Shown: positions 13,217 to 40,938, numbered from the whole stretch's first letter. The stretch is DNA of 63,971 bases, filler included, from Vezdaea acicularis (GCA_026025075.1; 3 parts of 3 records of this genome joined end to end with filler, not necessarily neighbours in it); one strand, 5' to 3'. Translations and numbers: made by a program. The notes: generated from the sequence alone by a model not told the origin.

Positions 13217-14420
13217 TCAAACATAAACATTGGCGGCCACCGTCCCCGTACTCTCCGCCTTAAACCCCTCAAGGGCCCACGTGCGATCGCCCACGACCTC
13301 CATCTTAGTCGTGATGGCACTCAGGCCCACCCCACCCTTAGTCTCCGCGCCCGCACCAGCACCACCTCCAACGACCTCATCCACATCGACAATGCCCGCG
13401 GTGATGGTCTGGCCGGGTTTGACGGCCACGCTGATGGTGGTGAGACGCGTGCCGGGGCCGGAGAGGGTGAAGTTGGGGCTGGTGCCGGAGTGCGTGATGG
13501 TGCTGTTGTAGGCGGCGGCGTGGTTGGCGACGGGGGATACCTCGGCGTAGCTGCTGCTGTCGTTGGCCCAGAAACAGCCTTCGTTTGGTTTGCAGCAGGG
13601 GCCGGGGAGGGGGAGGGGTCTGTGGGTGGGAAGGGGAGGTTTAGTTTTGGAATGCTGATATGATAGGGGTAAGGAGGGGGGGGGAGAGAACTCACTGGCG
13701 GACGCAGTCGGGGTCGCGGTAACCCCCGGGACACGCTTCGCATAGTGTCATGTTGTGCGGATCAAAGTCCTCGGTGACGAGGCCCCAGATCTCCGCGACG
13801 TAGCCGAGGCTGTAGCACGAGAGATCGACCTGGATCGTGAAGTTCGAGCGGAGGCTCTTGATGCTGACGTTTGCGGGCGGGTCTCCGTTCTCGCAGGACG
13901 CGTTGCTGAGCTGCGTGGCATTGGCGATGCCGGCGTACGAGTTCACGGGGATGTATGGCGGGGACTGGTCGTACGCCTGCGGGGAGACGCAGGTGCAGTT
14001 GCTGACGCAGTCGAAGACGGCGGGGACTTCCTGCGAGGGCGTGATGCCGAAGTTGGGGAAGCAGATCGGCGTGCTCGTGTTGGAGGTGCATTGGCAGCCG
14101 AAGTTGTTGAAGACGCACAGGTCGTTGAAGGAGGTGAAGTTGTTGCGATACGTCCCCGGCGGGTAGCCGGATGCGGGGAGGGAGCCCGTGCAGTTGAGGA
14201 CCTGGATGAGTGAGTATTTTCAGACATAGGACAGCTGAGAAGTCAATCGCGATGGACGAGTCAAGGCGACTCGCAAAGGAAACGCAAGCCTTACCGTCAA
14301 GTCATACGGGCTTGTATCCGTTGTGTTCCCCAGCGCCTGGACTTCTCCTACAGGGACCAGCGACCAACCAGCGGCAAGCCGGACTAACAATAAAAGCGCA
14401 GGAAATATCAGATGAATCAT
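13217..14420 (-). CDS. Secreted cysteine-rich protein A (~344 aa; exons 14420-14295, 14201-13696, 13619-13217)
   Basis: Signal peptide MIHLIFPALLLLVRLAAG and phase-compatible GT-AG introns. Contains the domain LNCTGSLP...LC...NFGCQC...C...CVSNCTC, further Cys motifs and several N-x-S/T sequons. The ORF track does not show it as one ORF. Confidence 0.8.
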
Positions 14421-15416
14421 CGCAAGATGATCTTCGGCTCGACAGAGCCCACGGTAGACCTTCACGAGAACGGTCCACGATAAAAAAGAAGCCCACCACA
14501 AATCAAATGTATGGACACGAAGGAAAGGCTTGGCAGATCGAATGCCATTATTGCCGGAGAGGCAATTACTTATACAAGAGATTGCTGATGACGTCTACGT
14601 GGGCGCATTGACGCCGCATGGTGGAGGAGATGAGTACCTTCTCCTCCACAAGAGGGGAAGCTCATATGCCTTTTCCATCGCTTCGAAACAGGCGCTCGGT
14701 AGAGGATGTTTCGCGCTCAAATAAAGGGTGTTGAAGATGTGGTTGGCGACAAACGTATTTGATCCTTCGCGTGCAGTGAATCTGGTAGCAGAAAATTGGT
14801 GAGGGCTTTCTCGCCCCGCAAAGCGGCCGGCTGCTCGCCGAGAACGAGGCTTAACCCGAGGGAAAGGAAACGCGATTGGATGAGAAAATCTTAAATCATT
14901 CGGAGTCCCTCAATTTAGGCTTCAAAACCCATTTCTTCAAGTCAACGAAATGGGGGGCTTTCGTATTTCCTGAGGGTCGCGTAAGTCGTGGGTGGAGCGT
15001 TGCGGTATATTTCCGACATTCGTCCTGAGCAATGACCTCCTTCGTGACCAAATTTCAAGACTGCGCGTAGACTGTGCTTAGTGTGCCAAAAGAACAAGGT
15101 ACGTGTACCGTGGAAATGGCTGTGTGACGGCACTCAGGTGCTCGTCGAAAGCGTGGTAGATGGTAGTTACTACATATAGTTATACAGGAGGTTAGTATGA
15201 AACTGATTAATCCGCTTATATCCCGATGCGGATAGGAATGCCCGTCTCTTCTAATCCCCGTCAGCCAAATGCCTATCAAAGCGGAAGCGCCAGTCGGTCA
15301 AGCAAACCCCACCCACTGGTCCATCAAACCTTATGCCCAGAATGTACACGCTAAAAATCTCAAGCCGTAGTAGAAAATATCCGTCTACTCCAATGCGCAT
15401 GCGACAAATGGAATGA

Positions 15417-17017
15417 TTAAGCATCGGGGTGGCTCTCCCTCCATTGTTCCTCCTTTCGCCATTCATTCTCCCTGCGCGCCTGCTCTTCTTGCTGCCTCGC
15501 CCGTTCTCTTTGTATTCTCTCCTTTTCCAACTGCTCAATCTCCTTCTGGCGCTGCTCTTTCTCCTTCTCCCACTCCGCCTTCTCGCGCTCCCTCTGTTCG
15601 CGTTCCTGTTGGAGCTCCTCCTGCACTTTCTGCCTCTCCTCGTCATTTTTCTTCTTCTCGTAATCGGATTCGAGATCTTCAGGCCATTGAGGAACGTAGT
15701 CAGTCTTTCCGGTGAATAGTTTATTAAGATTTTGGCGCACATCGAATACTATGTCATCGGAATAACCTTGAAGGCGGTAGCCGCCCTGTTTGTCTTCGCG
15801 GTCGGAGTCCTTACTTGTACTTCCCATAGGTCGGTGGACGCCGATTAACGGTGGCCACACACCGATACACCTGACGCCCTGCTTGCAGTAGTCTGCCAGG
15901 GTCAAGTCAATCTCTCTGTAGGCGTCTTGCAATCTCTCAAGCAACTTTTGGGCGCCTCGTTGACTGACGGCATAGGCTGCCGTGCACACTGCACCGCTGG
16001 TCGGGTACATGATGCGGGTTTGCTCCGGATACGCGGTATCGTCCAGGTGGCTGACGAGACTCCAGCGACGGTGTCTTCGAGGGACAGTTGCGCCTTGTTC
16101 TGTAACAAACGTGCGGTTATCATGTTCATCCGGGCTCTGACCGCAGTGTCCGATCCAGATGAGATCCCAATCATCACCGTAAGGGCTATGGGGTACGACA
16201 TGAGTGGCGTTGCTGACGTTGCTGAACATGCGACTGCCGTATGCAAAAGAGCTGAGTTGCTCCTTGAGGTGGACGTCCCAGGTCGCATCATCTTCAAAGA
16301 ACAGAGCAGAGGAAATCTCGTCCTTTACAACCCTTTGACGAGTGTCAGCAATAGAAGTCGACTAGAAGAAGTGGTGGCCAGCTTACTCTGACAGCATATT
16401 CATATGACCGCGGAAGCAGCCTAAACTGCTTTTCAACAGACTTCGGTCCCAATGCTATGAACAGAGTTAGTGGGATGCTTGTCAACTAAAGAGCAGGGTA
16501 CAGTACGGGAGGGTACGCTTTCTCGAGTATCTCATCGCCATCCACTCCATCCCGGAATTCGATATTGATCTTCGACGCTTTGCCGGCGAGGACGAGCTGA
16601 TCTTGCTTGTCTGTCCGACCAGGCATGCTCAACGCAAAGATCCTTTCGAACTGTATACGCGTTAGCCACGATAGCCACGAACAACCAGAATTGGCCATGG
16701 CATGATCATGCACGTACTCCCAGCGTCTTATTCTTTATCCGATCATATCCTTTCCCCGAAACGTCTCCAAAGAAAGTGGTATTATACCTGGGACCCGATC
16801 CGGACTCAGATTCGGATACGAGCGGGTCCTTGAGTGCCACAGGCCGAGGTAGATGCAGATGCTCATAATTAAGAAGGGTGAAGGAGAAGATGACACAGGC
16901 GCACACCAAGGCAGTAATCATGCGGCGGTTGATGCGGCCCCCGCGTATAGCGTCCATTGCTGTAGGTAAAAACGCCTGCTTTTCTGTGGGGCTGGATGGT
17001 GCACTGGGCAAGTACAT
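15417..17017 (-). CDS. Glycosyltransferase family 25 protein (type II membrane), four exons, with a charged coiled-coil C-tail
   Basis: N-terminal TM (ITALVCACVIFSFTLL), then FERIFALSMPGRTDK, GCFRGHMN, ALFFEDDATWD, SPYGDDWDLIWIGHCG and VCTAAYAVSQRGAQKLL. Confidence 0.88.
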
Positions 17018-19052
17018 TGCTGATAGGAAACAAACGATCTTTCGACGACGAGAAAGAAAGACAGAAAGGAAAGGCGCCGAGGAGTAAGGAAGAGGAAGGA
17101 TAGGGTTGATTAGGGCGTGGGAGAACTCATGAAGGACGAATTTGCATGGAGGAGGAGGGATGTCTCAACCATGAAAAGGAACACAGACTAGGAAATTGAT
17201 TGACAATCGGAGCAAACCAGCCAGCAGCTGAGCTGTAGCTAAGGCTCCAAGGTGACATCGGGAAAGGAAGTAGTGGCCTGGCTAGACCGTTCTCCTTATT
17301 TCGACGAAGAGATACACATTTGGTGGCGTGCCCGAAGGCAGCGTCCCCCTCGGTCGCGAACAGGCCGCAGACTCAAAATATCGATAAAACGGCCGGTTGA
17401 CCATATTCTGCAAGCTTGGCAAAGCTTGACCGGCGATTGGTTCAGGGGTTCGCTAACCGCTGTTTATCCTTCGTGGCTCGGAAATTCGGCTCAAAGCTAT
17501 ATTGTAGAGGTCCGCCAGCATGGCCCGACAGTGGCAGCTTCTCTGGTCAAGCTGCGCAGAGCTCCGTCGAGATCTCAAGAGTCTTCAAAACTCCTTCTAG
17601 ATCATCGTCGCATGGATCGCCGTGCATGAACGGTGATTAGTCGATGGGTTTGTCGACACCGTCGTATCCGATTTCGTGGCGAAGAGCCGGGGTGCCATGC
17701 ATGCCATGCAAGATGACCAGGGTGTCACTCGGCTAGGGCGAATTCATTGACCAAAGCGGCAATCCAAACGATTCCGAAAAGTGCCCCCCCCTCGAGACTC
17801 CATGTGAGATATAGGGGTACAATGGATGAGATGATCAAGGCCATACGGCCGAATTGGAGAAGCTCAATCTCGGGAGCATCAACCGCATCCTCTCCCCATC
17901 GGTAAATCGGGGAGCCTCGGTTCAAGCTAAAAGCTATTTGGAGCCTTTTGCTTACATAGCGAGATTTGGCCATCCTTGATCCCAGCAACCACAACTTTAG
18001 CCCAGACTCAAATCCGACCTCAGCCACGAATCTCTTTCACTAATCAGGTAGCATACGCCGACGGTGCAACATCATGCATGCGTGGATATCCCCCCATTTT
18101 CATTGCGACGCTCTCTCTCGAAATCTGATAGTCACATGCGGAAACAGGAGACTGCTAAGCCTTTCCGATCATGCGTTCTTCAGAGATGGACTCGCAAAAC
18201 GTTTCTGGAATGTTAGTACGGGGCAGTCGCTATTATACTACTATGTGTATCTAATACATCTAAAATTTGTCTCGCTGAGTGGTCATGTCTCGCCTGATGG
18301 TTGAAAACATTACCCTTACAGATTCGCCCCGAGAATTGACAGGGGAAGTGCTTGGTACGAGAGCAGTCAGCAACGCAATAGAATCGCCCAAGATGGGTGA
18401 AGCAGTCCTCTCCTTTCACAGCAATCATTCTAGCTAGATGTATCCAAAGAAATTTATCCAGGCAATTAATCTCACTATTCTCGGAATGGCATTGAGCCGA
18501 TCCTGGCAAGAATAATGATACCAAAGAAGGTCTTATCTCGTACCCACTTGATTAACGAAGTTCCAGCTTGACAAATAGGAACGCTAAGAATTTCACAATG
18601 CAAGGACAGTAGTTCTTAAAACATAAACTTGCCCCAGACGATCAAGTCTTTTGAGACAGGTGGTCGAAAAGGAATAGGGAATGACAATGCTGACTATAGA
18701 AAGTACAAGCCCTTTCCCTTGTGGACCTCTGATAGAGCATTTGAGGTCATGTTTAGATTGCTCAGTAGATCTTTTAGACCTTTAGACCTTTTACGGTCGA
18801 AAATCAAGAGTCTAAGTACGAGAGTCGTATGCTCAGGTACTAGATTCTCCCAGCCTTGTCAGCCTTTTCAGCCTTGTCACACAACAAGGCTGCACTGCTA
18901 CGGGACCCTGCTTTGTGTATTTATAGAACGTCAAATCCAGCGTTCAAAGCCTTCTCATATCATCTCCGATATGGCCGTACCATCATCTTGGTCAAGCGTG
19001 TTAGCAATATCTCTCTGATTACCCAACATCATCACGTCCACAAGTTTTCTCA

Positions 19053-22000
19053 ATGGAATTTGGTTTAGCCGCCAGCATAGTTACCATCATAGGAGCTAGC
19101 GCCAAGACTGTTAAATATCTGCAGGATGTGAAAGATGCTCCACCTGCTCGACGGAAGCTTGCCGTGGAAGTGGCTAGTCTCTTGAGCCTTCTCACGGACT
19201 TGCAATACCGAGTTGAGGGAGCAAAGGCAAACGAGCCATGGCTCCAGGGTGTTCAATCGCTTGCAGTAGAAAACGGACCCTTGGACCAGGTCAGGGGAGT
19301 AATGGAAGACTTGGCCAGGAAACTTCGACCAGTCGGGAAGCTCAAGGGATCTGTCCGAGCTTTGATCTGGACATTCGATAAAGAGAAGACCGATGACATG
19401 CTATCAAAGATCAATCGTGTCAACATGCAAATAAGTATTGCTCTACAGAAAGACCAATTGTTTGTTCACCAAAAGACCCAATTCCGTGTATATAGACACT
19501 AAACGTTCGTAGTGCACTATCTCTAAGGACGGACAAACAAGTCGAAGGTGTTGATGGGAAGGTACACGACATTGCAGATGGCGTTTCAGCATTACGCCTA
19601 GGTAAATCAAGACTATCCAAAATTCCCCGGCGGGATCAGTACTGACAGCCCATCAATTCAGACCAAAAGGAAGCGGCCTTAACTGGACGTCGTCGCCTTA
19701 TGGCAGAATGGATATCACCATTGGACTTCCATCATATACATAATGCCGCTCTGAGTAGCAGGCAATCAGACACAGGGAAATGGTTCCTAGAGTCTGAGCA
19801 GTTCAAACAATGGCTTCAGGGAACAAGTAAAGCTCTCTGGTGTCCGGGGATGCGTCAGTTCAAACTCTCTTTATACTTACTCTCTTGACACTTACTGACC
19901 GAAGATCTAGCCGGTGCCGGTAAAACAGTTATTGCGTAAGTTCCTTTCCCTTCCCTGCTCAATGATAACTTCGAACCTTTTAATAGAGCGATTGCTATAG
20001 ATCATGTGCAAAAACGATATACTAGTACGAAAACTGGAATGGCTTACATCTATTGCAATTATAAAGAGCAAAGCGAACAGACCTCCGTCAATCTTGTCGG
20101 CAGTCTACTACAGCAGCTGGCTCAGCAAAACCCTTCCATATTGGATAACTTGACGAGCATCTACGAACATCATTCTTCCAAAAATACCCGTCCAGCGCTT
20201 CACGAGATATCAAAAGTCTTTCAATCGACAATCTCCAGCTTTAAAAACGTCTTCATAGTCATAGACGCTCTTGACGAATGTTGTGAAGAGAACGGATCTC
20301 GAGATGGATTGCTTGAAAGTCTCGGAGCCTTGGTTGATAATGCACGATTCATGTTCACTTCAAGACCTAATGTGCGTATCAACAAAGGATTTCCGTATAT
20401 GCAAGAGTTGGAAATAATTGCAAGTAATGAAGACGTACGGACCTACTTGGATGCAAGGATTCTCCAAACACCTCGACTTGTCCGTATCATCAGATCACAT
20501 CTTGATCTTAAAGACATGATTGCAGATACTATCTCTAATAATGTCGAAGGAATGTATGTATTCTCTAATTCATCTGTTCTATCGTCAAGTAGACCAACAA
20601 TCTGACTTATTCTACCGCTGCAAATTGATCCACAGCAAAAACCATCTGACGGTTTCGCCAGGTTTCTACTAGCTCGGTTTCACATGGACTCGGTATCAAA
20701 CAAGCGTAGTCGGAATGAACTCCTCAAAGCTTTGCCGAACCTATCTAGTAGTTTGGAAGGAGCATATAACGAAGCGCTAGAGAGAATCGATGCTCAAGGG
20801 AAAGACGATCGACAGCTCGCCATGAAGGTAATATACTGGATCACCTTGGCCAAGGTCCCTTTGACTGTGCGTGAGCTTCAACATGCCCTCGCTGTCAAAC
20901 CCAGAGCAAGCCGACTAGACGAAGGTGATATTGTCGATGAGGAGACTCTATTGTCAGTTTGCGCCGGCTTAATCACTATCGAACCAAAGAGTCATATAGT
21001 CCGCTTAGTCCATTTCACAACACAAGACTACTTCAGAAGCATTCAGAAGGCTCGCTATCCAGATATTCATGCAGAAATTGCAACTGCTTGTCTCACCTAC
21101 CTCCTTTTTGAAGACTTCGCGACAGGACCATGCGCCAGCGATATGGATTTCTTAAATAGATTAGAAGTAAATGCTTTTCTAGACTATAGCGCTCGATATT
21201 GGGGTGAACATACGCGCGAAGTGGAAGATGCTGTTGAAATACCTGTTTTGGAGTTGCTTCAAGATAAATCACGCCTATCTTCCTATGCCCAGGTGACTCA
21301 TGTTCCAGAGTACAAATATGAAGGATTCAGCCAGTATTTTCCAAGAGGGGTTTCCGGGCTACAAGTTGCAGCAGCTTCTGGTCTAAATCAGACGATATAT
21401 CTGCTGCTGGAGAAGGGGGTCGACGTCGAGGCCAAAGACAGCCACGGATGGACAGCCCTGATCTTGGCAGCCTGGGGAGGGCACGAGGCCGTGGTGCGGC
21501 TGCTGCTGGAGAAAGGGGCCGACGTCGAGGCCAAGGACAGCGAGGGAAGGACGGCCCTGATCTGGGCAGCTCGGGGAGGGCACGAGGCCGTGGCGCGGCT
21601 GCTGCTGGAGAAAGGGGCCGACGTCGAGGTCGAGGCCGAGGACAGCCGCGGAAGAACGGCCCTGATCTGGGCAGCTTGGGAAGGGCACGAGGCCGTGGTG
21701 CGTCTGCTGCTGGAAAAAGGGGCCGACGTCGAGGCCAAGGACAGCGATGGAAGGACGGCCCTGATCTGGGCAGCTGCTGAAGAGTACGATCGCGTGTTGA
21801 TGCAGTGGCTGGAGGAAGTGACCGATTTCGAGGCCAAAGACAACCGGGGAAGGACAGCCCGGTATGGGGCAGCTGGGAGAGGGCACGAGGCCGTGGTACG
21901 GCAGCTGTTGGAGAAAGGGGCCGACGTCGAGGCCAAGGGCAGCTGGGGAGGGACAGCCCTGCATGAGGTAGCTCAGGGAGGGCGCGAGGCCGTGGTGCGG

Positions 22001-23218
22001 CAGCTGCTGGAGAAAGGGGCCGACGTCGAGGCCGAGGACAGCCATGGAAGAATGGCCCTGATCTGGGCAGCTTCGGAAGGGCACGAGGCCGTGGTGCGGC
22101 TGCTGCTGGAAAAAGGGGCCGACGTCGAGGCCAAGGACAGCGAGGGAATGACAGCCCTGTATGGGGCAGCTGGGGGAGGGCACGAGGCCGTGGTACGGCT
22201 GCTGCTGGAAAAAGGGGCCGACGTCGAGGCCAAGAACAGCGAGGGAAGGACGGCCCTGAGCTGGGCTGCTGAAGAAGGGTACGAGGCCGTAGTGCGGCAG
22301 CTGCTGCAGAACGGGGCCAACGTCGAGGCCAAGGACAGCAAGGGATGGACGGCCTTAGGGTGGGCATCTGTTCGCGCACGCGAGGCTGTGATACCGATGC
22401 TGCTGGAGAAAGGGGCCGAGGTCGGGGGTAAGGACAGCAATGCATGGACGGCTCTGGGCTCGCCAGCTGAGGAAGGGCACAAGGCCGTGGTACAGCTGCT
22501 GGGCGAAGGGGCCGACATTGAGGCTAAGGACAGCCGGAGAAGGTCGATTCTAAGGAGAGCAGCTGAAGAAGGGCATGATGCCGTTGTGCGGCTGCTGCTG
22601 GAAAAGGGGGCCGACGTCGAGGCCAAGGACAGCGAGGGAAGGACAGCTCTGTATGGGGCAGCTGAAGAAGGGCATGATACCGTTGTGCGGCAGCTGCTGG
22701 AAAAGGGGGCCGACGTCGAGGCCAAGGACAGCCAGGGAAGGACAGCTCTGTATGGGGCAGCTCGGGGAGGGCACGAGGCCGTGGTGCGGCAGCTGCTGGA
22801 GAAAGGGGCCGACGTCGAGGCCAAGGACAGCCAGGGAAGGACGGCCCTGCATGAGGCAGCTGAAGAAGGGCGCGAGGCCGTGGTGCGGCAGCTGCTGGGA
22901 AAAGGGGCCGACGTCGAGGCCAAGAACAGCTGGGGAGGGACAGCCCTGCATGAGGCAGCTGAAGAAGGGCGCGAGGCCGTGGTGCGGCAGCTGCTGGGAA
23001 AAGGGGCCGACGTCGAGGCCAAGGACAGCCAGGGAAGGACGGCCCTGCATGAGGCAGCTGGGGGAGGGCACGAGGCCGTAGTGCAGCTGCTGCTGGAGAA
23101 AGGGGCCGACGTCGAGGCCAAGGACAGGCAGGGAAGGACGGCCCCTTATGTGGCAGCTTTGGAAGGACACGAGGCCGTGGTGCGGCGGCTAAGATCTGTC
23201 TCACAGCATGGGAGTTAA
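19053..23218 (+). CDS. Fungal NLR-like STAND protein: HeLo-like/SesA-type N-terminal domain, NACHT NTPase, winged helix and 19 ankyrin repeats; six exons
   Basis: N-terminus MEFGLAASIVTIIGAS..., Walker A LWCPGMPGAGKT assembled across an intron, YIYCNYKE, Walker B FIVIDALDEC, FTSR, GMFLLARFH, VRLVHFTTQDYF, then ankyrin repeats. Five GT-AG introns restore a single frame. Confidence 0.92.
21347..23190 (+). repeat. Coding tandem array of 19 ankyrin repeats (~99-bp unit) with high internal DNA identity
   Basis: Recurrent gaggccgtggtgcggc...gctggagaaaggggccgacgtcgaggccaaggacagc; protein unit GxTALxxAAxxGHEAVVRLLLEKGADVEAKDSx. Confidence 0.97.
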
Positions 23219-23793
23219 CACTCTGCCGGCCCACCCACAGTCACAACACTTAAACGCCTTTTATATTCCCAAACTTCTTCCTTACCTATTTGTCAGCAGC
23301 ACGTCTCTCGTATTTGCTTTCTAGTTTCTCCGGCGAGATATGTAAGAAATGATTGCGAATGATGATTTCACAATGCTGTTGAAGTCATAGAGATTGTCAC
23401 ATCTAGTGCAAGAGAAATTGATGCTCGAAGTGGAAGATTCCCTTGATTGATATTCAAAAGGTCCCAGCCGCGACCTGATCCAAATATCCTGTCTTGTGGA
23501 ACAATTAGACTCAAGAAAGGTTTGAGGTTGTCATTAAGGTGCACGCCAGCTCAATCAGGCAATTAACAGGAGCCCAACCAAAGGCTCATCCTTAATTTGG
23601 GGTATAAGACTTTAAGAGGGGTAGTGCATAAATCATGCACTATATACAGGTTCATCATTTGCACTAAGTCATCGTGCAATTAGCGAAGAAACCCTATAAT
23701 TCTTCATCCTTGCACAACTTTAAACCATACAATCTAACAAGTAACTCTTGACTGTCTAGCAGGTGGACATAAAGGGTATCTCTTCGCTATCAT

Positions 23794-24381
23794 TCAACCG
23801 CCCCAAGTAACAAAAGGTCTGCAATTCCGGCCCCAATCTCTCTGCCGCCGTCCAGGCGAAAGTCCACATACCTTACCACTGACTTCTGCTGCTCTGTGTC
23901 TCCTATCTATCTGAAGTATCGGTCGTTCCGTAACAATCGAAGCGATGGAACACCGGCACGACGATATGCAATGTAAGCGAAGGTCACTGTTGTATAGATC
24001 TATATCGCTATGAGGAGGCGCATGACAGAGCACTCGTGTCGACACAAACGGGGCGGCGCAGGCACATCCCATGTTGAGTTGGTTCCAGCTGTTGTAGGCG
24101 CACAGCGCCGTGAGGGAGGAATAATGCTGTGGATATGTGTGTGGAGGCCAGGGGGGAGGAGGTAGTGGGCCCTCGCAAACTATTTCGTCTAGTAGGGAGT
24201 TGCGTGTTTCTGGAAAACCGGGCTGAGGGTTGTCTGGGTGGTATCGCGTTGGCGTTCTTGGACGGATGGCGATGTCATTTGAAGGTGGATCGAGGGCTGA
24301 GATAGAAGCAAGACTTGCCCCAGTTGATATGAAGACAAGGATGATTGAGCAGAGCAAGCCCGCGTAATTGCATGCTTCCAT
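23794..24381 (-). CDS. Secreted cysteine-rich protein B (~195 aa; C-terminus uncertain because of a possible GTATGT donor near 23871)
   Basis: Signal peptide MEACNYAGLLCSIILVFISTGASLA and an 8-Cys domain IVCEGPLP...LCAYN...NMGCAC...C...CISSCRC homologous to protein A. Confidence 0.78.
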   Translation of the reverse strand: MEACNYAGLLCSIILVFISTGASLASISALDPPSNDIAIRPRTPTRYHPDNPQPGFPETRNSLLDEIVCEGPLPPPPWPPHTYPQHYSSLTALCAYNSWNQLNMGCACAAPFVSTRVLCHAPPHSDIDLYNSDLRLHCISSCRCSIASIVTERPILQIDRRHRAAEVSGKVCGLSPGRRQRDWGRNCRPFVTWGG

Positions 24382-25328: not shown

Positions 25329-25589
25329 AGTGTGGGTGCTTCATGGAGTGTTCAATTGGTCGCTGATGGAGGGTTTCGATACCGGACTGCTCATAGGAGA
25401 TTGGCACCGCGAGGGAGCAAAGGAGCATTCCATCTGGAGTTTGAAGGCGTTGGTCTCTATCATGTATACGGCATTTCTGGGTCAAACTTGATCGAGCATG
25501 AGAATCTTGCTCGTATTCTTCCAGCGGATGAAAGAGGAGACGAAAGCTATCAGATAATCGCTAATCTTAATTTTCTTACACATAAATCC

Positions 25590-27599: not shown

Positions 27600-27699
27600 N
27601 NNNNNNNNNNNNNNNNNNNNNNNNNNNNNNNNNNNNNNNNNNNTTAATTAATTAANNNNNNNNNNNNNNNNNNNNNNNNNNNNNNNNNNNNNNNNNNNN
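27600..27699. other. Artificial contig-joining spacer (N44-TTAATTAATTAA-N44)
   Basis: Exactly 100 nt, with a central palindrome that gives stops in all six frames. An identical copy lies at 54709-54808 and genes are truncated on both sides. Confidence 0.97.
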
Positions 27700-29183: not shown

Positions 29184-31078
29184 TCACAGCGTGACGATAG
29201 TAACAGCTAAAATGCCCCTAACCTCCTTCAACCTCGCCACCACATCCGGCCTTACCTCTTTATCCACGCCCAGAATCATGAGGGCCTCGCGCTGACCCTC
29301 TTCCTGCGGCGCCGTCGTCGTCGTCGCGGTACTCAGCTCGCTCGCTTCGCTCAAAGGCGCCACGCTCATGAAATTGATATTCACGTCCATTTCACCGAGG
29401 AGCATGCCGACGCCGCCGATCTTGCCGGGCGAGTCGTAGTTATGGCAGATGAGCAGCGTGCCGGCGGGCACGAAGCTAGTGCTGAAACGGTCGAGGCGGC
29501 TGATGAAGATTTGGGCGTCGGAGCAGAAGCCGCTGATGACTTGCTGTTGCTGGTGCTCGTCTTCGGGGGTGGGGAGGGGGTGGCGCTCGTGGCTGGAAGA
29601 GCGGCTGGGGCGGGCACGCAGGGTGACGAGGGAGGAGTAGGTGTGGGTGATGGGGTCGCGGGAGTGCGTTTGGTTGATGATGAGACCGCGCTCTTTGGCG
29701 ATGAGGTCGGCGTTGACGATGTTCACGTTCATGCCGGCGGTGCTGGATATTGATTGGGTGAGGCCTTTGACGAGGGCGGCGAAGAGGGGCTTGGTGTTGT
29801 TGATGGTGGAGAGCTGGTGCTTGGTGTTAGTGCCTGATGCGATGGTGGAGAGGGGGCTTTGGGTGACATACCTCGCCTTCGTAAATCAGATCAAATGAGG
29901 TGCCACTCCCGTGTGCTTGAAGCGAGCCGTAGTGCTGTGTGTAGAGGCTGCCCATCTTCTCGACGAGCTGCACGAAAGGCTGGAGCTTCTTGTACTCTTC
30001 AGGGAGGATTATTGGTGCGTTGACGGCAGAACGGGGAAGCTCGCCCGCGAGGATCGCCACTGTTTGAGAACACACGTCGATACTCACATTCTCTTGGGCT
30101 TCTACGGTGCTTGCACCCAGATGAGGCGTTGCAACGACGCGAGGATGCGCTATCAGCTTTGCGGCTGTGCTATCAGAAGCTGGAGGCTCCGAGGTGAATA
30201 CGTCTAAGGCTGCACCCGCGAGATGCCCGGATTCGAGCGCTGCCAGCAATGCCGTTTCATCGATCATCCCTCCTCGTGCAACATTCAGTATCCGCGAGCC
30301 TTTCTTCATCAACGCAAGCTCATTTGACGAGATCATTCCCCGAGTTGATGCGATTAGGGGTGTGTGGATGGTGAGGAAGTCGGAGACGGCGAGAAGAGAA
30401 GGCAACGACGTGTGCAGGGTAACAAAGGCAGCAGCAGCAATTGCTGGAGAGGCGTATGGATCTAATCCATGTAGCGTCATACCCAGCCCATGGGCCATAC
30501 GGGCCACGTTCAATCCCACCTTTCCCAAACCTATAATGCCCAGGGTTTTACCCTTGGCTTCAACCCCGACCAACCTGGACCGCTCCCATTTGCCTGCTTT
30601 AATCGATGCGCAGCCATCAGGGATGTTGCGCGCCATGGAGAGCATCAGAGCAATTGTGTGTTCTGCGGCCGCTCCGATATTGCCAGACGGCGAGTTGACA
30701 ACTATGATGCCATGTTTCGTTGCTGCTTCGACATCTACCAAGCTGCCATCAGTACTGGACTACTCGAAGCCAATTGCAAGCAAACAGGATCCGGGCAACC
30801 GCACCAACATTGTCAACGCCAACTCCAGCCCTCGCAACAATACTCAGCTTGGTTCCCTTTGCGAGCAAATCGGCCGTGACTTTAGTTTCGGAGCGGACAA
30901 TCAACGCGTCATATTCTGGAATGATTTCTAAAAGCTGCTCGGCAGAGAGCCCTTTCTTCTCATCGACATCTAGAGACGATTTCAACAAAGCGATGCCATC
31001 TGGAGAGACTTTCTCTGCAATCAGCACTTTTGACCTCCTTGAGTATCCATTGGCTGCCCCGGTATTTTGGGCTGCCAT
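29184..31078 (-). CDS. D-3-phosphoglycerate dehydrogenase with ASB and ACT domains (type I architecture), three exons
   Basis: YDALIVRSETKVT, VARAGVGVDNVD, AAAEHTIALM, GIIGLGKVG, LNVARGG, DVFTSEPP, TPHLGASTVEAQ, NIVNADLIAKERG and the ACT motif NYDSPGKIGGVGMLLG..VNINFM. Confidence 0.93.
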
Positions 31079-31433
31079 ACTTGAAACCACCCAGCTCCGT
31101 ATGGACTAGAATTTGGGAATGATACATCAAGGACAAAGGGAACTCCCAGCAATCGCGTAGAGTCGTAGCCCGGCAAAAGAAATTAAATCGACAACCGATG
31201 TCGGAAAGGTGGGGCAATGCGGGGGAGAGTCTGGGGTCGCAACGCGAAGCGAAGCGGGACGGTGCAATCACAAGCAAGTAAGATCTCGAAGTAGTTAGTC
31301 CTTGAGTAACGTAGATGATTATCTGATCCAACAACGTTTTATTGTGGCCGTGGTTGCTGTCTCCGGCTTCGCTCATTGCATTCAGACGATCGAGGCTTCG
31401 GCCCAAAGACGGCCGTGATTAGAAAAGGTCGAG

Positions 31434-32600
31434 TTACCAATTGCTTCTCGTCTTCAAATTCTCGTTTTGAATCACTTCAATCCAGTAGCTGTGAACGTGT
31501 AAGCGCATATGTACAGACCATACTTCTTGGACTCCCTGTTATTTTACTCACTCATCTGGGTCAAGAATGAAAGCAACGTTCTTCATTCGGCCATCACTTA
31601 GGCGCTTCTTCCAATTGACTTTCAGATCATCGAATCGCGTACAAGCTGCATCAAGATCGTCGACGGTAATGCCTGGAATAGCAGTCAGCATCCAGCTCCT
31701 TTTGGTCTGTAGATATACGAACATATATGCCCGAATCCTTGAGGCTCAGCGTTTCCGTCATGATACTTGAAATCCGCTTTGTCGGTAGTTTCATAATTCC
31801 AGGTGAGTTCAAGGAGCCCCTCCATGCCCGCAAGCACTTCAAATTCACCCGTCTTCGTTTTCTCGTAACCAAGAAAGTACAAATCGAAGCCACCGTCTTT
31901 GTTTTCGACGGTCCGAACCAGCGACATGCCCAGTACATTGCGGTAAAAGTCTAGTGAAGCCTTCGCTGATTTCACACGGATCATTGAGTGATTCATGCGG
32001 TATGTATCCGTATGAGTGTCCTTGACGTGTTCGGTTTTGTCCACAGGGTTTTGTCCGATTATCTCGACCCAATATCCATCAGGATCCAAAGCAAAGGCGA
32101 TATGTCGCATCTTCCCATCCGTCAGCCTTTTCTGAAATTTATAGCCGGCATTTTCGATCCTGGCACAAGCAGCCTGTATATTGTCCACCGAGACACAGAC
32201 ATGGCCAAAACCGCGGAAATGCTCTGAGTTGCCGTTGTTGATTTTAAAGTTCGGGTCGCTCTCCGTGCCATAGTTATGGGTAAGCTCGATGATTCCCTCC
32301 CGATCTGTCCAATGCTTCCCGCTCGAGACAGACTTTGGGCCATCGTGAGCGAGGAAGTACAGGCAGAATTTGTTATCCGGAAAGTCCATCTTATGGATTT
32401 GTTTGAAACCGAGAAAGTCATAGTACTTGACTAGGAAAGGTCAATCCAGGTCTTTCTCAGCCACCGTAAGGCGTACCTGAAGCTTCTGGGTCTTTTACCC
32501 GAAGCCTGCTTTGGTATTAGATGAGCTCTGCCTGCTGGACGCCAGCACGTACTTACATGGTGTGGTTGAGTTTATATTTTGAAACATCGGTGGCCGCCAT
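31434..32600 (-). CDS. GLO1: Glyoxalase I (lactoylglutathione lyase), monomeric two-domain fungal type, five exons
   Basis: MAATDVSKYKLNHTMLRVKDP, IELTHNYGTE, GFGHVCVSVD, MNHSMIRVK, LELTWNY, GFGHIC and DPDDYWIEVIQ; introns are phase-consistent. Confidence 0.95.
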
Positions 32601-33598
32601 GACTGCGTAAGGTCTGCACTTTGCAAAAAGTCTGATTGATACAGTTAGACTTTTCTGGAAAGCTACCTCGTTTGAAGAGGTTGTATCGAGCAATTGATAG
32701 TTCTCTTGTAGTTGTCGCAATTCTGACGAAACTCATGATGCACAACCAAAATTTTAGACTGGCGCTTTCTTGACGAACATTTCAGGACCGACTCATGACG
32801 TGAGAAGCTCGGATCTAAGCCGAGGCACCTCAGGGTGGAGCCAACCATCCTAGGCCAACCAGAGATGATAGCAGCATCATGAAAGCTTTATTCCTCGACT
32901 CTGGTCAGCTATCAATCCGTGTTTCCTACCCTGAAGGCATCGCAAGGATCTTTGCTAAGCTTCGACATCACGTGGCATTCCCACGCTGTCTCGGAGTTAA
33001 GCTCTGGTCCAGGCCGAGAAGTTTGACCGAGACAAGGTCCTCATGCCATAACGAAGGGTTTACACTTTGCTGGCGATAAGATACGTAACTAAGAAAATTT
33101 TCTAAAGGTTCCTTGTGAGCAGTCTACTAGAGATTCTGGAAATTGCTTTGGTGATCGCCACTCGCCACGCGTTGTTGCGTGAAAAAAGGGTTTGGGCTTC
33201 GGGGAGATGTATCGTCGTTTAGAATGTTCTATCTCTCAACATGAGCCAGCTTCTCCCGGGAGCATTTGTAAGGGACGATATGCTGTACCTTTTGGGCATG
33301 TCGGAGCTTGTAAGGACCGCCATGACGTGAGTGAAATTATGGGCGGTCCGGAAAGATGAATAGAGCCCAGTTGGTAATAGACCGACTTTCCTGTGGCGGT
33401 ATAGAAGCGAGCGCGCTTGGTGCATTGTAGAGGCTGCCGGCTGGTTAGATGCCGATGTCCGCTCGTGGCCATTACGATTAGACTGCATGACTCCGACTGG
33501 GGACGATAAATATTGGGCCTGGACCCTGGTGTAGGGAGAAAATAATCCAACAACACCAAAGTCGATACTTCCCACACTTCATACGCGTGAGGATTGAG

Positions 33599-36500
33599 AT
33601 GGCGGAACCTGGCCAAGAGAAAGATCACGCCAAGACCATTGGTGATGTAGCTGCCGGGGGTCTGAGCACAGATGGTCCGCACATCGCAACCGAGCCATTA
33701 CGATACGTTGGTACCGACAGTAGCTCTTCAGTCGTCGACGCAGAGCTCGGCGACCTCGAAAAGAAAGGAGAATCACTCCCTCGGAGGGTCGTAACACAGT
33801 CCTCATTCGCAACTGAGGATGCCTCACGATTCGATTCGAGGGAAGACGATGGGGCGTCCGGGGGGAAGAAGAAAAAATGGTACAAACGATTGAATCCTCT
33901 GAAATGGGGAGAAAAACCACCTGTTCCGGAAGAACGTACCGTATCAAGAGAATACGGGGCGTCCTTCCTGAGTATGCTCACCTTCCAATGGATGGCCCCA
34001 ATAATGAGAGTAAGTCGCCGTTGCGTTCAACCAGCCGATTCATTCTCTCTTGCAATTGGCTAACTCTCTCTGTAGACAGGCTATCGGCGCCCCCTAGAGT
34101 TGAATGATATATGGCTCGTCAACCCAGATCGTCGTGCTGAAATCATGGCAGAGAAGCTCAGTGCATCATTTAGTACGCGTGTCGCGCGAGGAGACAAATA
34201 TCCTTTGCTTATGGCTCTACATGAGACCTACAAAAGGGAATTCTGGATTGGAGGCCTTTGCCAGTTTACCTCGAGTATATTGCAGGTCTTGTCGCCGTTC
34301 ACGCTTCGATATCTCATTCAATTCGCTGGCGAGGCTTACTATGCACAGCAACTGAGGACGAAAGGACCACCAATAGGTCGAGGCATAGGCCTTGTCATCG
34401 CCGTTACGGTAATGCAAATGATCCAGAGCTTAGGAACGAGCCATTTCATATATAGGGGAATGATGGTTGGCGCACAATGTCGGGCAGTGCTCATATCGGT
34501 CGTTTTTCAGAAGGCTATGAAGATATCAGGGAGAGCCAAGGCGGGTGGGAAGGCGATTGAAGGACCCGCTGGAGCTACTACAGTCGAGGACGAAAAAATC
34601 GGGAAAGAAGGGGGAAAAGCTAAGAAGTCTAATGGCCACGCCCAAAGATCAACTCCGGATAAGACTCCTGGTGTAATTGGTGAAGGTTTAGGTTGGGGAA
34701 ATGGCCGAATCGTAACGTTAATGAGTGTCGATACATACCGAGTGGACCAGGCCTCTGGAATGTTCCACATTATATGGACAGCACCGGTATCCATTTGCCT
34801 GACGTTGGCTCTTCTTCTCGTCAACCTAACGTACAGCGCTCTGGCTGGATTCGGTCTGCTTGTTCTTGGAATCCCTCTCCTGACCATGGCAGTGAAATCA
34901 CTATTCGTTCGAAGACGCGCCATAAACAAGATCACCGACCAAAGAGTTAGCTTAACGCAGGAAATACTGCAAGCGGTCCGCTTCGTGAAACTCTTCGGTT
35001 GGGAAGAAGCATTTCTCGAACGAATAGGGGATATCAGAAAGAGAGAAGTCCGATCCATTCAGATCCTCTTGGCTATACGAAATGCGGTTAACGCAGTATC
35101 GATGGTGAGAACAGCCTTTCTCATACTGTGCCCCAGTTGAAGATTGCAACGCTAACATCTGCCCAGTCCCTTCCAATTTTCGCTTCTATGTTGTCATTTA
35201 TCACATATTCTCTGTCCAAGCATATTCTCGACCCGGCACCGATATTCTCTTCGCTCGCACTTTTCAATTCGCTCAGAATGCCACTCAACTTGCTGCCGAT
35301 GGTGATTGGACAGGTCATCGATGCTTGGGCGTCGCTAGGACGGATCCAAGACTTCCTCATTGCTGAAGAGTTGGAGGAAGACGCCATTCGGGACTACGAT
35401 TCAGAGAACGCAGTCGAGATGAGACATGCCAATTTTACATGGGAGAGAACCGTCACCCAGGATCTAGAGAAGGGAAAACCGGGTCAGAAGCCAGCTACAA
35501 AGAAGCAAAATAAAGACGGGAAGAAAGTTCAAAAAGAAGAGGCTGCAGCGAGCGGGTCTGGGTCCGGTGAAGGTGATAGCTCGGATACTAGTAGTACCCA
35601 TTCAGAGCAGGAACCTTTCAAGTTGTCAGACATCAACTTTACGGCTGGCAGAAACGAGCTCCTCGCTGTCATTGGCAATGTCGGTTCAGGAAAGAGTTCT
35701 TTGTTAGCTGCGTTGGCTGGGGACATGCGAAAGACCCAGGGCCTCGTAATGATAGGCGCTTCGCGGGCGTTTTGCCCTCAGTACGCTTGGATTCAGAACA
35801 CGACTGTACGAGAAAACATTGTGTTTGGAAAAGAATTCGATCCCGTCTATTACAATAAGGTCATTGACGCATGCGCCTTGCGTCCTGATCTTGAAATCCT
35901 TCCCAATGGCGATCAGACCGAAATTGGAGAACGCGGCATCACCGTCAGTGGTGGCCAAAAGCAGAGAATCAATATTGCAAGGGCAATCTACTTCAACGCA
36001 GACATTGTCCTGATGGACGACCCGCTGTCAGCAGTCGATGCTCATGTTGGCCGGCATATGTTTGATAACGCTATTTCCGGGCTCCTGAAAGACAAATGTC
36101 GGATATTGGCGACACATCAGCTTCACATCTTGAATCGATGTGATCGTGTCATCTGGATGGACAATGGTTCAATTCTGGCTATTGACACTTTTGATAACCT
36201 GATGGCAAACAACCCGGGCTTCCAAAAGCTGATGGTGACCACGGCGCAAGAGAAAGCAGGAGATGAAGAGACGGATAAAAATGATGAAACCCGTGATGAA
36301 GAGAAGAAAGGCAGGAAGAAACGATCAAAGCCGGCTGCGGCCCTGATGCAAGCTGAAGAGAGGGCAGTCAAGAGTGTCTCGTGGGGTGTCTACAAGTCCT
36401 ACATCGCGTCATCCGGCTCTTTACTCAACGCACCACTCGTTATAATGCTCTTGATCCTGTCTCAAGGCGCTAACATCGCGACAAGTCTGTGGCTTTCATG

Positions 36501-38136
36501 GTGGACTTCTAACAAATTCGGATTCTCAATGGGACAATATATTGGGGCTTATGCTGGACTGGGTGTGGTGCAAGCCTTGATGATGTTCATATTTTCGGTG
36601 GCCCTGACAGTCACCGGGACACAAGCAAGCAAGGTTATGCTTGGCAAGGCCATGAAGCGCGCTTTGAGGGCGCCGATGTCATTCTTTGACACCACGCCAC
36701 TTGGTCGTATCACGAACAGGTTCTCCAAAGACGTCGACACGATGGACAACACCCTAACGGACGCAATGCGCATGTACTTTTTCACGCTTTCAATGATCAT
36801 CTCAGTCTTCATATTGATCATTGTCTACTTCCACTATTTCGCTATAGCTCTTGGCCCCCTGTTCATCATGTTCGTCTTCTCTGCCAGCTACTATCGGGCG
36901 TCTGCGCGAGAAATGAAACGACACGAGGCCGTCTTGCGATCTCACGTCTTTTCAAAATTTGGCGAAGCTCTCTCAGGAACCGCCTCCATCCGAGCGTATG
37001 GCCTTCAAACCCGGTTTGTTAAGACTCTTTACGAAAGTATCGACAATATGGACTCGGCATACTACCTCACTTTCTCCAATCAGCGCTGGCTGAGCCTCCG
37101 TCTTGATGTAATCGGAAATTCACTCGTCTTCACCACCGGAATTCTTGTCGTCACATCTCGCTTCAATGTGTCACCCAGCATCGGTGGACTCGTTCTCTCT
37201 TATATCTTGTCGATCGTACAGCTGATCCAGTTCACCGTACGACAGCTTGCTGAAGTTGAGAATGCCATGAATGCAACCGAAAGAATACACTTTTATGGCA
37301 CCGAGCTTGAAGAGGAAGCGCCACGCCACCTGAATCCCGTCGAGCCGTCATGGCCTGAAGCTGGCGAGATCGTCTTCGATCATGTTCAGATGCGTTATCG
37401 AGCCAATCTACCTCTTGTCCTGAACGATCTGTCTCTGCACGTAAAGCCTGGCGAACGAGTTGGTGTCGTTGGTCGGACCGGCGCAGGGAAGTCCAGCATT
37501 ATGTCGACGCTCTTCCGCCTCGTTGAGATCTCTAGCGGCAGCATCACCATTGATGGGTTAGACATCAGTAAAGTCGGTCTCCATGACCTACGGACACGCC
37601 TGGCGATCATCCCCCAGGATCCCACGCTTTTCAGAGGTACCATCCGCTCTAATCTCGACCCTTTCAACGAGCACACGGACCTTGAGCTATGGTCTGTTCT
37701 GCGCCAGAGCTATCTCGTGTCCGAAGATGCAAATCTGGACGACAAGACTCCAGGACGGATCCACCTGGACGGTGTAGTCGAGGAGGAGGGTCTTAATTAT
37801 TCGCTTGGACAGCGTCAGCTCATGGCGCTCGCTCGGGCTCTCGTTCGAGGCTCAAGGATAATCGTTTGTGATGAGGCGACTAGCAGCGTTGACATGGAAA
37901 CCGACCAGAAGATTCAAGAGACGATGGCTAGGGGGTTCAAGGGTAAGACCTTACTCTGCATTGCACATCGCTTACGAACGATTCTTGGCTATGATCGTAT
38001 TGTTGTCATGGACAAGGGTAATATTGCTGAGGTTGACACTCCTCTGGCGCTCTGGGAGCTGGGAGGAGTCTTTAGGAGCATGTGCGACAGGAGTGGGATT
38101 CGCAGGGAGGATTTCGAAGAAGGAAGTCTAGAGTAG
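33599..38136 (+). CDS. YOR1: ABCC/MRP-type ABC transporter, YOR1-like (TMD-NBD-TMD-NBD), introns ~34010-34078 and ~35105-35166
   Basis: GNVGSGKSS, EIGERGITVSGGQKQR, MDDPLSAVDAHVG, FFDTTPLGRI, GRTGAGKSS, NYSLGQRQL and CDEATSSVD. Confidence 0.93.
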
Positions 38137-38332
38137 GCGTTAGCAAGAGCGTGTTTTGTTTGGCATTGGCAGCATGATCGGGCTTACTGCATATATCCAG
38201 GCATATTTGAAGCAGCTCATAGAACGGCTTACTCAAGTCGCAATTCACTTACTTCAAACTGTTCATGTCATCAAAACTTCTTCGTTTCACGTGCACGAAG
38301 CTCAGGCCGAGTCACGGTTGGCAAAAGCGATG

Positions 38333-39058
38333 TTATTGAGTATCTCCAAACTCTTCTATGTTCAGCCTCCGGAAATCGATCACAGTGCAGAGTCCGTCTG
38401 GGTTCTCGGCGGCCACGAAGGACCTTTCATCTACGCGGCTTATCCTGGTGCGAAGCGCCGTGATGACCACAATCGTGGCCGCGAATGTGAAGTCGGCTGG
38501 AGCCGCCACTCCCCTCAACCCGAACGCGAAGGGGAGCTGTTGCGCCCGGAAACTGGTTGATGCTGGCCATACTTGGCTGAGGTGATCTTTGCGGATAACT
38601 GTGTCGTCTCAAGTAAGTATCTCGCGCTATATCATCCACTGCAGGGTATGCTTACGAAAAGTCACAGAGTTCCATATGTCAAACGGCGACTGTTGCCGAT
38701 TCCAGTATAGCTGGTGTATAAATGCAGATAGGCGCCAGGTATCTTCGTCGCCTCTGTGCCAGACCAAATTCGAGTGCGTCTGCCGGTTCGAATTCAAGAT
38801 CATTGCGACGGATTCCGGCGTGTCCTGGAAATCCAAAATCACGTTTCTGGTCTCTTGATTGCTCGTTTCGCCCGCCTTGGGGAATCGCACGTAGGTGTTT
38901 CTCACGTCGACGATATCCCAGCCTTGACCGGCGGCGAATGCATCGGCTCTTCCAAACCCGATTCGGTGTATCACTTCTGCGCAGCTGAGAGATGCCGCTG
39001 GGTTGATTAGGGTTAGGAGGATGCTCAAGAGCGTGAAGATGATGACCTGGTTCCTCAT
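38333..39058 (-). CDS. Orphan secreted protein (~222 aa, two Cys), intron 38599-38655
   Basis: Signal peptide MRNQVIIFTLLSILLTLINPAAS. A GTAAGC...CAG intron joins the 143-aa ORF in frame to the 38333-38518 ORF. Confidence 0.72.
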
Positions 39059-39708
39059 GCTTCAGGCGGGTCCGTGAGGTTGATGGAGCTCCAGGGAGTT
39101 TCCATGCTCTGGCGATACAGCTCGAGGCAGCGACGTGAGGTTCCTTATAGCGGGCGTTTTCATCAGAGAGAAACACTAAATCCAGTACTTGTGTCACTTT
39201 GAGGGATAATTCACCCTCTTGCGGCGGTGATGGGCTGTTTCACGAGCTATTTCAAGTTGTGTAGCCTTGTACATCTAGGACAAATTTGGAATGGTCGTTG
39301 GTATTAGCTTCGCCTTTCTCCCAGGCTGCTCAAGGGTGGAGACCGGTGGCCGGTTTGAGACGTGCCCCACTGCATCCGCAGGAAACCTTCAAAAACAACT
39401 CTGACGCTCCTCCGACGTGCACAATGTTTGTCAAAAGGAGCGCAAAAGCAATTTGACAAGATAAAACACCGGCACCCACCGAGAAGCGATATATCCGCTC
39501 TCTCTTAGAGGATTTATTGGCTCGTGCGCCAATTATTGTTGGTGATGTCTGACCATTCCCGGTCGACGCGCCAAAGTGTCGTGCAAATGCCGCATATCAA
39601 ATATGCGGCTGCCCTACGACCAGAAGCGGTTTTCCAGGATCGTCCTTCATCTTGGAGATTTCTTCATAGTAAAAGTGCAAGGCCATCAGGCCTTCTCTTT
39701 CCATCCTC

Positions 39709-40938
39709 ATGGGTTTTCTTCTTTATTATTGGTTCCAGCTTCTTTCGTTGACAGTCGCAGTCCTTGGGTCGATTGGCACATCGATAGAAAAACGAACGGT
39801 GCCAGAATTATTGCGGACTCCTGTCGACGGACGCATCAACTGCGATGGCCCTCTTCCTCCCTTCTGGGTGCCGCTCCCAAAGCCCGACGAGGGTGAACAG
39901 CTCACACTACATGATCTCTGTGCCAAGGCCGGCGGCCTCTCGGGACCCAACGTCGGTGGATTCTGCGGCGACAACTTCCAGATCTATTTCGAACCATCTT
40001 TCACCCCAGTGAGCGGGAGACAGATAGGAAATCCGCGTCTGTTCCACTACTGCAAGACTCGTTGCGTCTGCGAAGAACAGCTGGCCGTAGCGTCATCGAG
40101 AAGAACTGCACTCATGGCGCTTGCGAGAACGGAGCCACTCCAATGGTTTCCAGGGGATCAGACGTACATGATCACGTTAGATGAGAATGACGACTACAAG
40201 GTCCCGCCGAGCATGCACATGGGGGAAAGTGGCGCGTATGTTCCCACTACCGCAGTCTTCCAGCGTTTCCCGGCCTATCTGTGGAGAGTCAGCATCAATC
40301 CAGCAAATAGTGTGACGTGCAGTGGACCCCTCCCAAGAGATATACCTACTCCCGCCAACATCGAAGATTACACGGACCTGCAACAACTATGCGCCATCCA
40401 GCATTTCGGCGGCAACCCGTTCGTCTTCCCTGCCCTATTCCCAAGCCTTCCCTCCCCACAACAAAGATATCACAACTAACCGCCATCCCCTAACAGAAAA
40501 GCCAACGCAGGAGCCTACTGCCACCGCGAAGCCGACGACGTCCACGTCGAGTTCGCCGACGAGCTAACCCCAAGTCTCGGCTGGACATTCTACGTGCACA
40601 ATCCACACGCGTTGAGTCTCCGAACCTACTGCTCAGTCCGCTGTCGCTGCCGCCTGCGACAAAAAGACGACGCCCCCGACAAAAGAATCCCCATCCCCAT
40701 CGCCGAAGGGCGGCGGACAAAGTATAATCTCCCAGCCCGCCCCAAGAGAAAACAAGTCTTGACGCAGCGCGTCCTTGGGTGTTTCCTCGGATCGCGGGTG
40801 TATACTGATGATGATCGATGTAAGAATGAAGGAGGAGTGGACGCTGCGTATTCCATCCCGGCGCTGCTGGCGGCGGAGAGGAGAGGTTCTTGGGGGTTGA
40901 GAGTGAGGAAACGGGCGTTAAGGGGAGGGCGAGAGTGA
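39709..40938 (+). CDS. Secreted cysteine-rich protein C (~383 aa) with two tandem copies of the CxGPLP domain, intron 40419-40496
   Basis: Signal peptide followed by a Kex2-like EKR. Domain 1 is INCDGPLP...LC...NVGGFC...CKTRCVC. Domain 2 is VTCSGPLP...LC...(intron)...NAGAYC...CSVRCRC. Confidence 0.82.

Follow-up and report, generated by a model that had tools for sequence, protein, structure and literature searches.

Disulfide-stabilized secreted modules of 40 to 100 residues, occurring singly or in tandem, are familiar from the hevein/CBM18, WSC, CFEM, and LysM families, which are often expanded in symbiotic or pathogenic fungi. Hydrophobins carry eight cysteines with two adjacent CC pairs. 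How a lichen fungus recognizes or controls its alga is an old open question; lichen fungi are hard to manipulate genetically, and their candidate secreted "effectors" are mostly species-specific orphans. For Xanthoria parietina, a preprint reports 205 secreted proteins without a domain or structural match, as well as six wholly unannotated structural clusters (cl04, cl14, cl15, cl48, cl52, and cl82), and places some of the unannotated clusters in lichen-enriched orthogroups and among the genes upregulated in thalli (bioRxiv 10.1101/2024.08.16.608140). Small secreted proteins of Cladonia grayi are reported to be induced in co-culture (PMC6652019), and Vezdaea has been described as lichenised or alga-associated (PMC13616976). 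Here, we analyzed a 63,971-nucleotide window of Vezdaea acicularis DNA (GCA_026025075.1), consisting of three contigs of a metagenome-assembled genome (MAG) laid end to end with N runs between them. It holds three genes, A, B, and C, for cysteine-rich and apparently secreted proteins that together carry four copies of one module (CDS, coding sequence; aa, amino acids):

13217..14420, minus strand: gene A; CDS 14420..14295, 14201..13696, and 13619..13217 (stop included); 344 aa, 16 Cys
13989-14192, minus strand: module A; 8 Cys, namely six core Cys and an extra pair (the first Cys of GCQC and the Cys of PIC)
23794..24381, minus strand: gene B; one open frame; 195 aa, 12 Cys
23950-24177, minus strand: module B; 8 Cys
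39709..40938, plus strand: gene C; CDS 39709..40418 and 40497..40938 (stop included); 383 aa, 14 Cys
39841-40071, plus strand: module C1, the first of gene C, of the unit-1 type; 6 Cys; covered by AlphaFold model m45d2fb104175

The second module of gene C, C2, also has 6 Cys and is interrupted by a predicted intron (see below).

All four window modules have the six-Cys register C-x-G-P-L-P ... L-C ... G-x-x-C ... C-x3-C-x-C. By analogy, such a module would most plausibly work like the small wall- or carbohydrate-binding Cys modules of the hevein/CBM18, WSC, CFEM, and LysM type; it differs from them in its register C...C...C...C-x3-C-x-C with an N-terminal C-x-G-P-L-P. An adjacent CC pair is found in none of the four. 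By their description, the novel X. parietina clusters resemble the present proteins in being secreted and in having neither a Pfam domain nor a match to a characterized structure, and the clusters lack InterPro domains as well; relatives of the present family also occur in Teloschistaceae, the fungal family of X. parietina. The nearest known proteins are those like KAI9681287.1 of Caeruleum heppii (540 aa; P0006 here), an unnamed family for which neither a Pfam model nor a study of any member exists. Collinear with it (signal, module 1, linker motif, module 2), gene C keeps its six-Cys register, and many P0006-type gene models break off at the position of the gene C intron. Unlike P0006-type proteins, gene C lacks a 12-Cys region, and A and B have a single module, two extra Cys, and unrelated tails. 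A literature search returned no paper describing this module or family.

The preliminary description of this DNA had proposed three signal peptide proteins sharing four copies of one modular domain, both single and in tandem. The peptides that it quoted for A, B, C1, and C2 are exact translations of the coordinates given for them, with 8, 8, 6, and 6 Cys, respectively. A hydrophobic N terminus is present in all three genes by a crude Kyte-Doolittle test (9-residue maximum of 2.99 for A and 2.66 for C); for B, the test was made on its sole close relative in a word-index search (P0001 from ENA; 94% identity, equal length; 3.31). Pairwise BLASTP related A to B (E = 0.003), A to C (0.013), B to C1 (0.002), and C1 to the second-exon part of C2 (5e-5). 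Leave-one-out hidden Markov models (HMMs) were then scored on the 1574 six-frame open reading frames (ORFs) of the window, and each omitted gene ranked first among the nontraining ORFs (A, 0.0029; B, 4.7e-11; C, 8.1e-4). The second half of C2 was recovered at 1.1e-3, with the next ORF at E>=0.2. An HMM of 117 module instances containing no V. acicularis row matched C2 at 5e-27, C1 at 3.2e-16, B at 2.3e-11, and A at 1.7e-4, while an HMM of 36 foreign full-length proteins matched exon 1 of gene C at 1.6e-39, its exon 2 at 2.4e-17, and gene B at 3.7e-9, the last in the module-2 columns. Gene A is joined to the family through its subfamily, since in hhalign the two-module family was matched with 99.1% probability (E = 8.9e-19) by a profile of the 8-Cys subfamily, which comprised A, the B-like protein, and seven further proteins. 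Because pairwise BLASTP reached only 0.013 to 5e-5, we considered whether the likeness could be a matter of chance or composition among unrelated Cys/Pro-rich ORFs. This is extremely improbable, given that the leave-one-out and foreign HMMs recover every copy, that hhalign agrees, and that 93 database relatives share the same six-Cys register. The proposal of four copies of one domain therefore held up, and A, B, and C are very probably real members of one homologous secreted family. A profile run against the six-frame ORFs found no fifth copy within the window (next ORF, E = 0.34).

Structure prediction points in the same direction. AlphaFold2, applied to C1 and the 77 residues that follow it (39826-40302; 159 residues; 81-row alignment), returned a mean predicted local distance difference test score (pLDDT) of 85.2 and a predicted template modeling score (pTM) of 0.82. 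Residues 90-140 of this model had a pLDDT of 81-94; because the linker after C1 is also ordered in the model, the folded unit is predicted to be larger than the Cys motif. In the model of A, pLDDT was 86-96 over most of residues 41-120 of P0002, the NCBI protein corresponding to gene A (block 91-100 at 61), and below 50 over the remaining 225 residues. The two models, compared without superposition, present their elements in equal order (strand, helix, strand, strand, helix, strand, helix), which agrees with one fold in A and C1. The predicted module, 75-100 residues in size, would run from a strand (C-x-G-P-L-P) through a short helix (L-x-x-L-C-A), a hairpin (N-x-G-G-x-C), a helix, and a strand (C-x3-C-x-C) to a last helix. 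Neither the model of A nor that of C1 with its linker matched the fold of a solved structure; the module may be a new fold, although a missing match is no proof of one.

Sequence searches of known families were likewise negative. The preliminary description had seen no hydrophobin, CFEM, LysM, WSC, cerato-platanin, or hevein pattern, and Pfam bears this out, with none of these families in the window ORFs (E<=1) or in 91 relatives (E<=0.001). No Pfam family matched the four window ORFs at or above its curated cutoff, and 89 of the 91 relatives had no match at E<=0.001. The other two (P0013 and P0059) carry MOSC or GDSL domains far from their modules and look like fused gene models. A Pre-SET match to A (E = 0.04; 14.9 bits versus a cutoff of 29.1) was rejected as an artifact of Cys composition. 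Family profiles found nothing in the PDB at E<=1 except one 13-bit row (E = 0.52), which we judged to be noise, and the ESM Atlas gave no usable match for P0002 or P0006. Modules of this size evolve rapidly and may escape profile searches, so a diverged member of a described Cys-rich family (hevein/CBM18, WSC, CFEM, hydrophobin, cerato-platanin, or a family held in InterPro and not in Pfam) had to be weighed. With no such Pfam family in the window or its relatives, no meaningful PDB sequence match, and no fold match for either model, we regard this as very unlikely.

A profile of the four window modules, and thus of Vezdaea only, was compared exhaustively with 1,835,955,588 representatives and matched 93 proteins at E<=1e-3, of which 23 reached E<=1e-10 and a single one E<=1e-30; a broader 36-sequence profile was used in a word-index search only (8000 candidates scored, 17 returned). 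Most family matches are 510-640 aa long, with two module copies at approximately residues 40-135 and 215-320. A typical member of ∼540 aa begins with a signal peptide, continues with modules 1 and 2, between which lies a structured linker, and closes with a separate C-terminal region with 12 Cys that ends in C-x-C-N-x-T-Y-V-S-x-x-C-C. Units 1 and 2 form an internal repeat (99.1%, E = 8.2e-19, 95 columns), and the C-terminal region is unrelated to both and is a second undescribed module. None of the window genes has this full architecture of two modules and a 12-Cys region, and A and B have one module and lack the C-x-C-N-x-T-Y-V-S-x-x-C-C ending. A longer form of this motif (C-x-C-N-x-T-Y-V-S-x-x-C-C ... 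G-x-V-x-E ... L-G) is common to the two-module proteins and some single-module proteins and is absent from A, B, and C. The C-x-C-N-x-T-Y-V-S ending also occurs in two Caeruleum 8-Cys proteins (P0088 and P0089) and in P0083, a module protein without the extra Cys pair, which provides a further link between single-module proteins and the two-module family.

All 34 matches that carry an organism name come from MAGs of lichen fungi: Caeruleum heppii (21), Vezdaea aestivalis (5), V. acicularis (2), and one each from Thelocarpon impressellum, Piccolia ochrophora, Teloschistes chrysophthalmus, T. peruensis, cf. Caloplaca, and Haloplaca. NCBI taxonomy places Vezdaea, Caeruleum, Piccolia, and Thelocarpon under leotiomyceta incertae sedis; Teloschistaceae belong to the Lecanoromycetes. 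Judging by these sequences, the family looks lineage restricted and, among named matches, limited to lichen fungi, with no member from a named nonlichen fungus among the 34. The lichen restriction is an observation on named matches, since most of the remaining matches, from ENA, Logan, and JGI, are nameless and the exhaustive profile was built from Vezdaea only. The preliminary description had suggested a large lineage-specific expansion. The data support this for a relative, C. heppii, in which at least 21 paralogues are found, but not for V. acicularis itself, in which only four genes were seen (A, B, C, and P0099). Paralogues within one genome show only 23-46% identity to P0006.

Genes A and B belong to a single-module subfamily. 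In 118 of 122 complete module instances, all six core Cys are kept, and their near invariance implies three disulfides. The extra pair (the first Cys of G-C-x-C and one Cys 8-20 residues later) is present as a pair in 9 of the 122 instances, and neither Cys occurs in the other 113. Such co-occurrence fits a fourth disulfide, which is thus predicted for A and B. Judging by motif order, the core Cys might be cross-linked in a Cys1-Cys4 or Cys1-Cys6 manner, and the two extra Cys might be bonded to each other. In a tree of the 122 instances, C1 falls in the unit-1 clade, A is nearest to the B-like protein and to P0099 of V. acicularis, and a weakly supported clade (0.645) unites eight of the nine 8-Cys modules. 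The idea, also put forward earlier, that C1 and C2 had lost one disulfide thus survives in part: the two Cys present in A and B do co-occur, but the 8-Cys form is the minority. On these sequences, gain of the pair would be at least as likely as its loss.

Beyond the module, the two genes differ in layout. The spliced translation of gene A is identical letter for letter to P0002 ("MAG: hypothetical protein M1824_001847 [Vezdaea acicularis]"), and its introns run GTAAGG..CAG (93 nucleotides) and GTGAGT..CAG (76 nucleotides). It encodes a signal-like N terminus, one 8-Cys module, and then 225 residues without detectable relatives (13217-13988, minus strand), which contain eight more Cys, most of the 13 N-x-S/T sequons of the protein, and a Gly/Ala/Thr-rich end. 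A word-index homologue search with A returned A itself only. Gene B encodes a signal-like N terminus, one 8-Cys module, and a short tail.

Gene C is of the two-module type, and its second module is recovered across a predicted splice:

40072..40302, plus strand: region after C1, with a Y-x-I-x-x-D-x-x-D-D-Y-like motif; predicted to fold with C1 as a 159-residue unit
40318..40418, plus strand: first half of module C2, CSGPLP...LCAIQHFGGN; family-HMM positions up to 256
40419..40496, plus strand: predicted intron within module 2, 78 nucleotides, GTTCGT...CTAACAG
40497..40650, plus strand: second half of module C2, KANAGAYC...YCSVRCRC; family-HMM positions 255-315 (the exon 2 match at 2.4e-17)

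The encoded protein would comprise a signal-like N terminus, modules 1 and 2 separated by a structured linker, and a basic tail, and the motif of the region after C1 is also present in the family consensus. Spliced gene C aligns in a single stretch to family-HMM positions 11-315 (209.4 bits), with an exon junction that is seamless against the profile. P0003 (256 aa), the unspliced model in the public record, reaches 132.3 bits over positions 11-256, so that the spliced form gains 77 bits. P0003 runs past the 5' splice site (40418/40419) and meets a stop codon within the intron, at 40477-40479, so that the second half of module 2 is missing from it. A similar truncation recurs in the family: in the source predictions, 30 of 108 family proteins end within 30 residues past the first half of module 2, mostly right after a conserved GG, as expected if an intron at this site is often missed. 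These data suggest that gene C is a spliced gene of 383 aa. No ORF in the window matched the C-terminal 12-Cys region (HMM positions 316-543), and gene C is probably a short form of the typical two-module member, ending after module 2.

A search with a narrower alignment returned nine metagenome loci (L001-L009; e.g., L002:2450-3594) that hold module 2 and the C-terminal region only. They have no intron at the site of the gene C intron and no module 1 within 2.5 kb upstream, and they count neither for nor against a conserved intron. The nine are near-identical and fungal. The W-T-W Trp codon is an in-frame TAG in seven and CAG in two, and the second core Cys is Tyr in 9/9; they look like a decaying copy.

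We then asked what such proteins might do. In the mechanism that we propose, the members would be exported and oxidized in the endoplasmic reticulum; outside the cell, they would persist as stable, nonenzymatic scaffolds held by three or four disulfides, and their variable loops would attach to a partner molecule located in the wall or extracellular matrix shared by fungus, alga, and other microbes. They would thus be effector-like or recognition proteins. Export is suggested by the hydrophobic stretch ahead of the first module, which a crude test found in 78 of 108 family proteins. A scaffold is suggested by the pattern of conservation: in the 36 full-length members, columns with >=90% conservation consist almost exclusively of Cys, Gly, and Pro; the few exceptions are the start Met, a single Gln, two Asn, and a single Arg, with no His, Asp, Glu, or Ser. 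Together with the 23-46% identity among paralogues, this fits a rigid scaffold with variable surfaces, as would be typical of binding, recognition, and effector-like proteins. The effector, surface, or recognition role named in the preliminary description is compatible with this view and, like it, is an inference. Nonenzymatic extracellular binding is the most likely role that we can propose, held with slightly less than even confidence; the explanation as a whole, a secreted family working as scaffolds, may as well prove right as wrong.

Several observations count against this interpretation. Gene A is the weakest member: it scores only E = 0.42 with the HMM of 36 foreign full-length proteins, and its match to the foreign unit HMM (1.7e-4) covers only half of the module. 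Thirty of the 108 family proteins fail the crude hydrophobicity test, several of them looking N-terminally truncated. For the splice in gene C, no RNA run covering 39600-41000 was among the matches, and the five runs found are DNA metagenomes in contig form. Distant relatives in nonlichen fungi could have been missed by the Vezdaea-only exhaustive profile. Lastly, module 2 of the two-module proteins keeps Y-C-H-R and D-E-M-T-P-R-L-x-W-T-W, motifs that could make up a site for a specific ligand or a metal, a feature not predicted by a purely variable scaffold.

The module-2 motifs raise the alternative that the family comprises enzymes, or metal- or cofactor-binding proteins of a new fold, with the active site in module 2. 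Both motifs are kept among the Caeruleum paralogues, and 10 sequences show little or no variation at His273, Glu286, Met287, Thr288, Pro289, and Arg290. Across the 36 members, however, only Pro289 of these residues is invariant, unit 1 and genes A and B lack the motifs, and no Pfam, PDB, or fold link leads to any enzyme, making this alternative quite improbable.

Glycosylation bears on another alternative, that these are glycoproteins with a structural function in the cell wall or extracellular matrix. Cross-linked into or embedded in the hyphal wall or the matrix shared within the lichen, they would serve adhesion, water relations, or surface properties and have no specific ligand. The 13 sequons of gene A and its Ser/Thr/Gly/Ala-rich C-terminal part of low predicted order would suit such a protein, as would a disulfide-rich family with signal-like N termini and many paralogues in one genome. 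However, B and C contain no N-x-S/T sequon, the C termini of the sequences inspected have no hydrophobic tail of the glycosylphosphatidylinositol type, and low-complexity repeats of the wall protein type are missing; strong divergence among paralogues also fits binding specificity better than a bulk structural role. We consider a structural role unlikely. An antimicrobial or killer-toxin-like activity, directed against competing microbes or controlling the photobiont population, would likewise suit an expanded, fast-evolving family, and the X. parietina preprint includes large killer-toxin Kp4-like groups among the small disulfide-rich secreted proteins of lichen fungi (bioRxiv 10.1101/2024.08.16.608140). 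We rate this activity as improbable.

The data extend the preliminary description of a modular secreted family by a typical architecture, two subfamilies, a range of lichen fungi only among named matches, and the lack of a known fold. A more far-reaching reading is that the family is linked to symbiosis, confined to lichen-forming ascomycetes, of a disulfide-locked fold that the PDB lacks, and engaged in partner recognition or modulation at the interface of fungus and alga. We regard this as rather doubtful. If true, the family would span Lecanoromycetes (Teloschistaceae) and the Vezdaea, Thelocarpon, Piccolia, and Caeruleum lineages, with more than 20 diverged paralogues in one mycobiont, and would be the first sequence-defined "lichen effector" family common to distant lichen lineages. 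If relatives occur in ordinary fungi, it would be just another uncharacterized secreted Cys-rich family. Because the family can be defined by sequence, is confidently folded in prediction, and occurs in several lineages, it offers concrete proteins to express, localize, and test for binding, and its profile offers a means of asking whether the occurrence of the family, or its number of copies, follows the lichen lifestyle.

The physical arrangement of the three genes is constrained by the construction of the window, which contains two artificial joins:

27600-27699: join 1, two runs of 44 N; separates the contig with A and B from the contig with C
54709-54808: join 2, two runs of 44 N

Since the window is three joined contigs, linkage across either join is not real. 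The contig that encodes P0002 measures 27599 nucleotides, the same as the first piece of the window. The preliminary description had correctly placed gene C beyond an artificial join, and the N runs were found at 27600-27699; its count of three members in 64 kb did not hold, because only A and B are linked (on one contig, ∼9.4 kb apart) and the figure, an artifact of the joins, is no evidence of density. No cluster of secreted-protein genes was seen around gene C. Its neighbors are of the housekeeping type, with an ABC transporter gene upstream (34076-38136, plus strand) and a cyclophilin/WD40 gene downstream (41402-43432, minus strand). At ∼650 bp upstream of gene C, the opposite strand carries a 144-codon ORF (38627-39061, minus strand) with a signal-like N terminus and no Pfam match, which may encode a second small secreted protein of no known family. 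Just upstream of gene B is an NLR (NOD-like receptor)-like gene (19940-23218, plus strand), in which an NPHP3_N/NACHT nucleoside triphosphatase part (E = 1.6e-22) is followed by a long, very regular array of ankyrin repeats (Ank, E = 3e-135).

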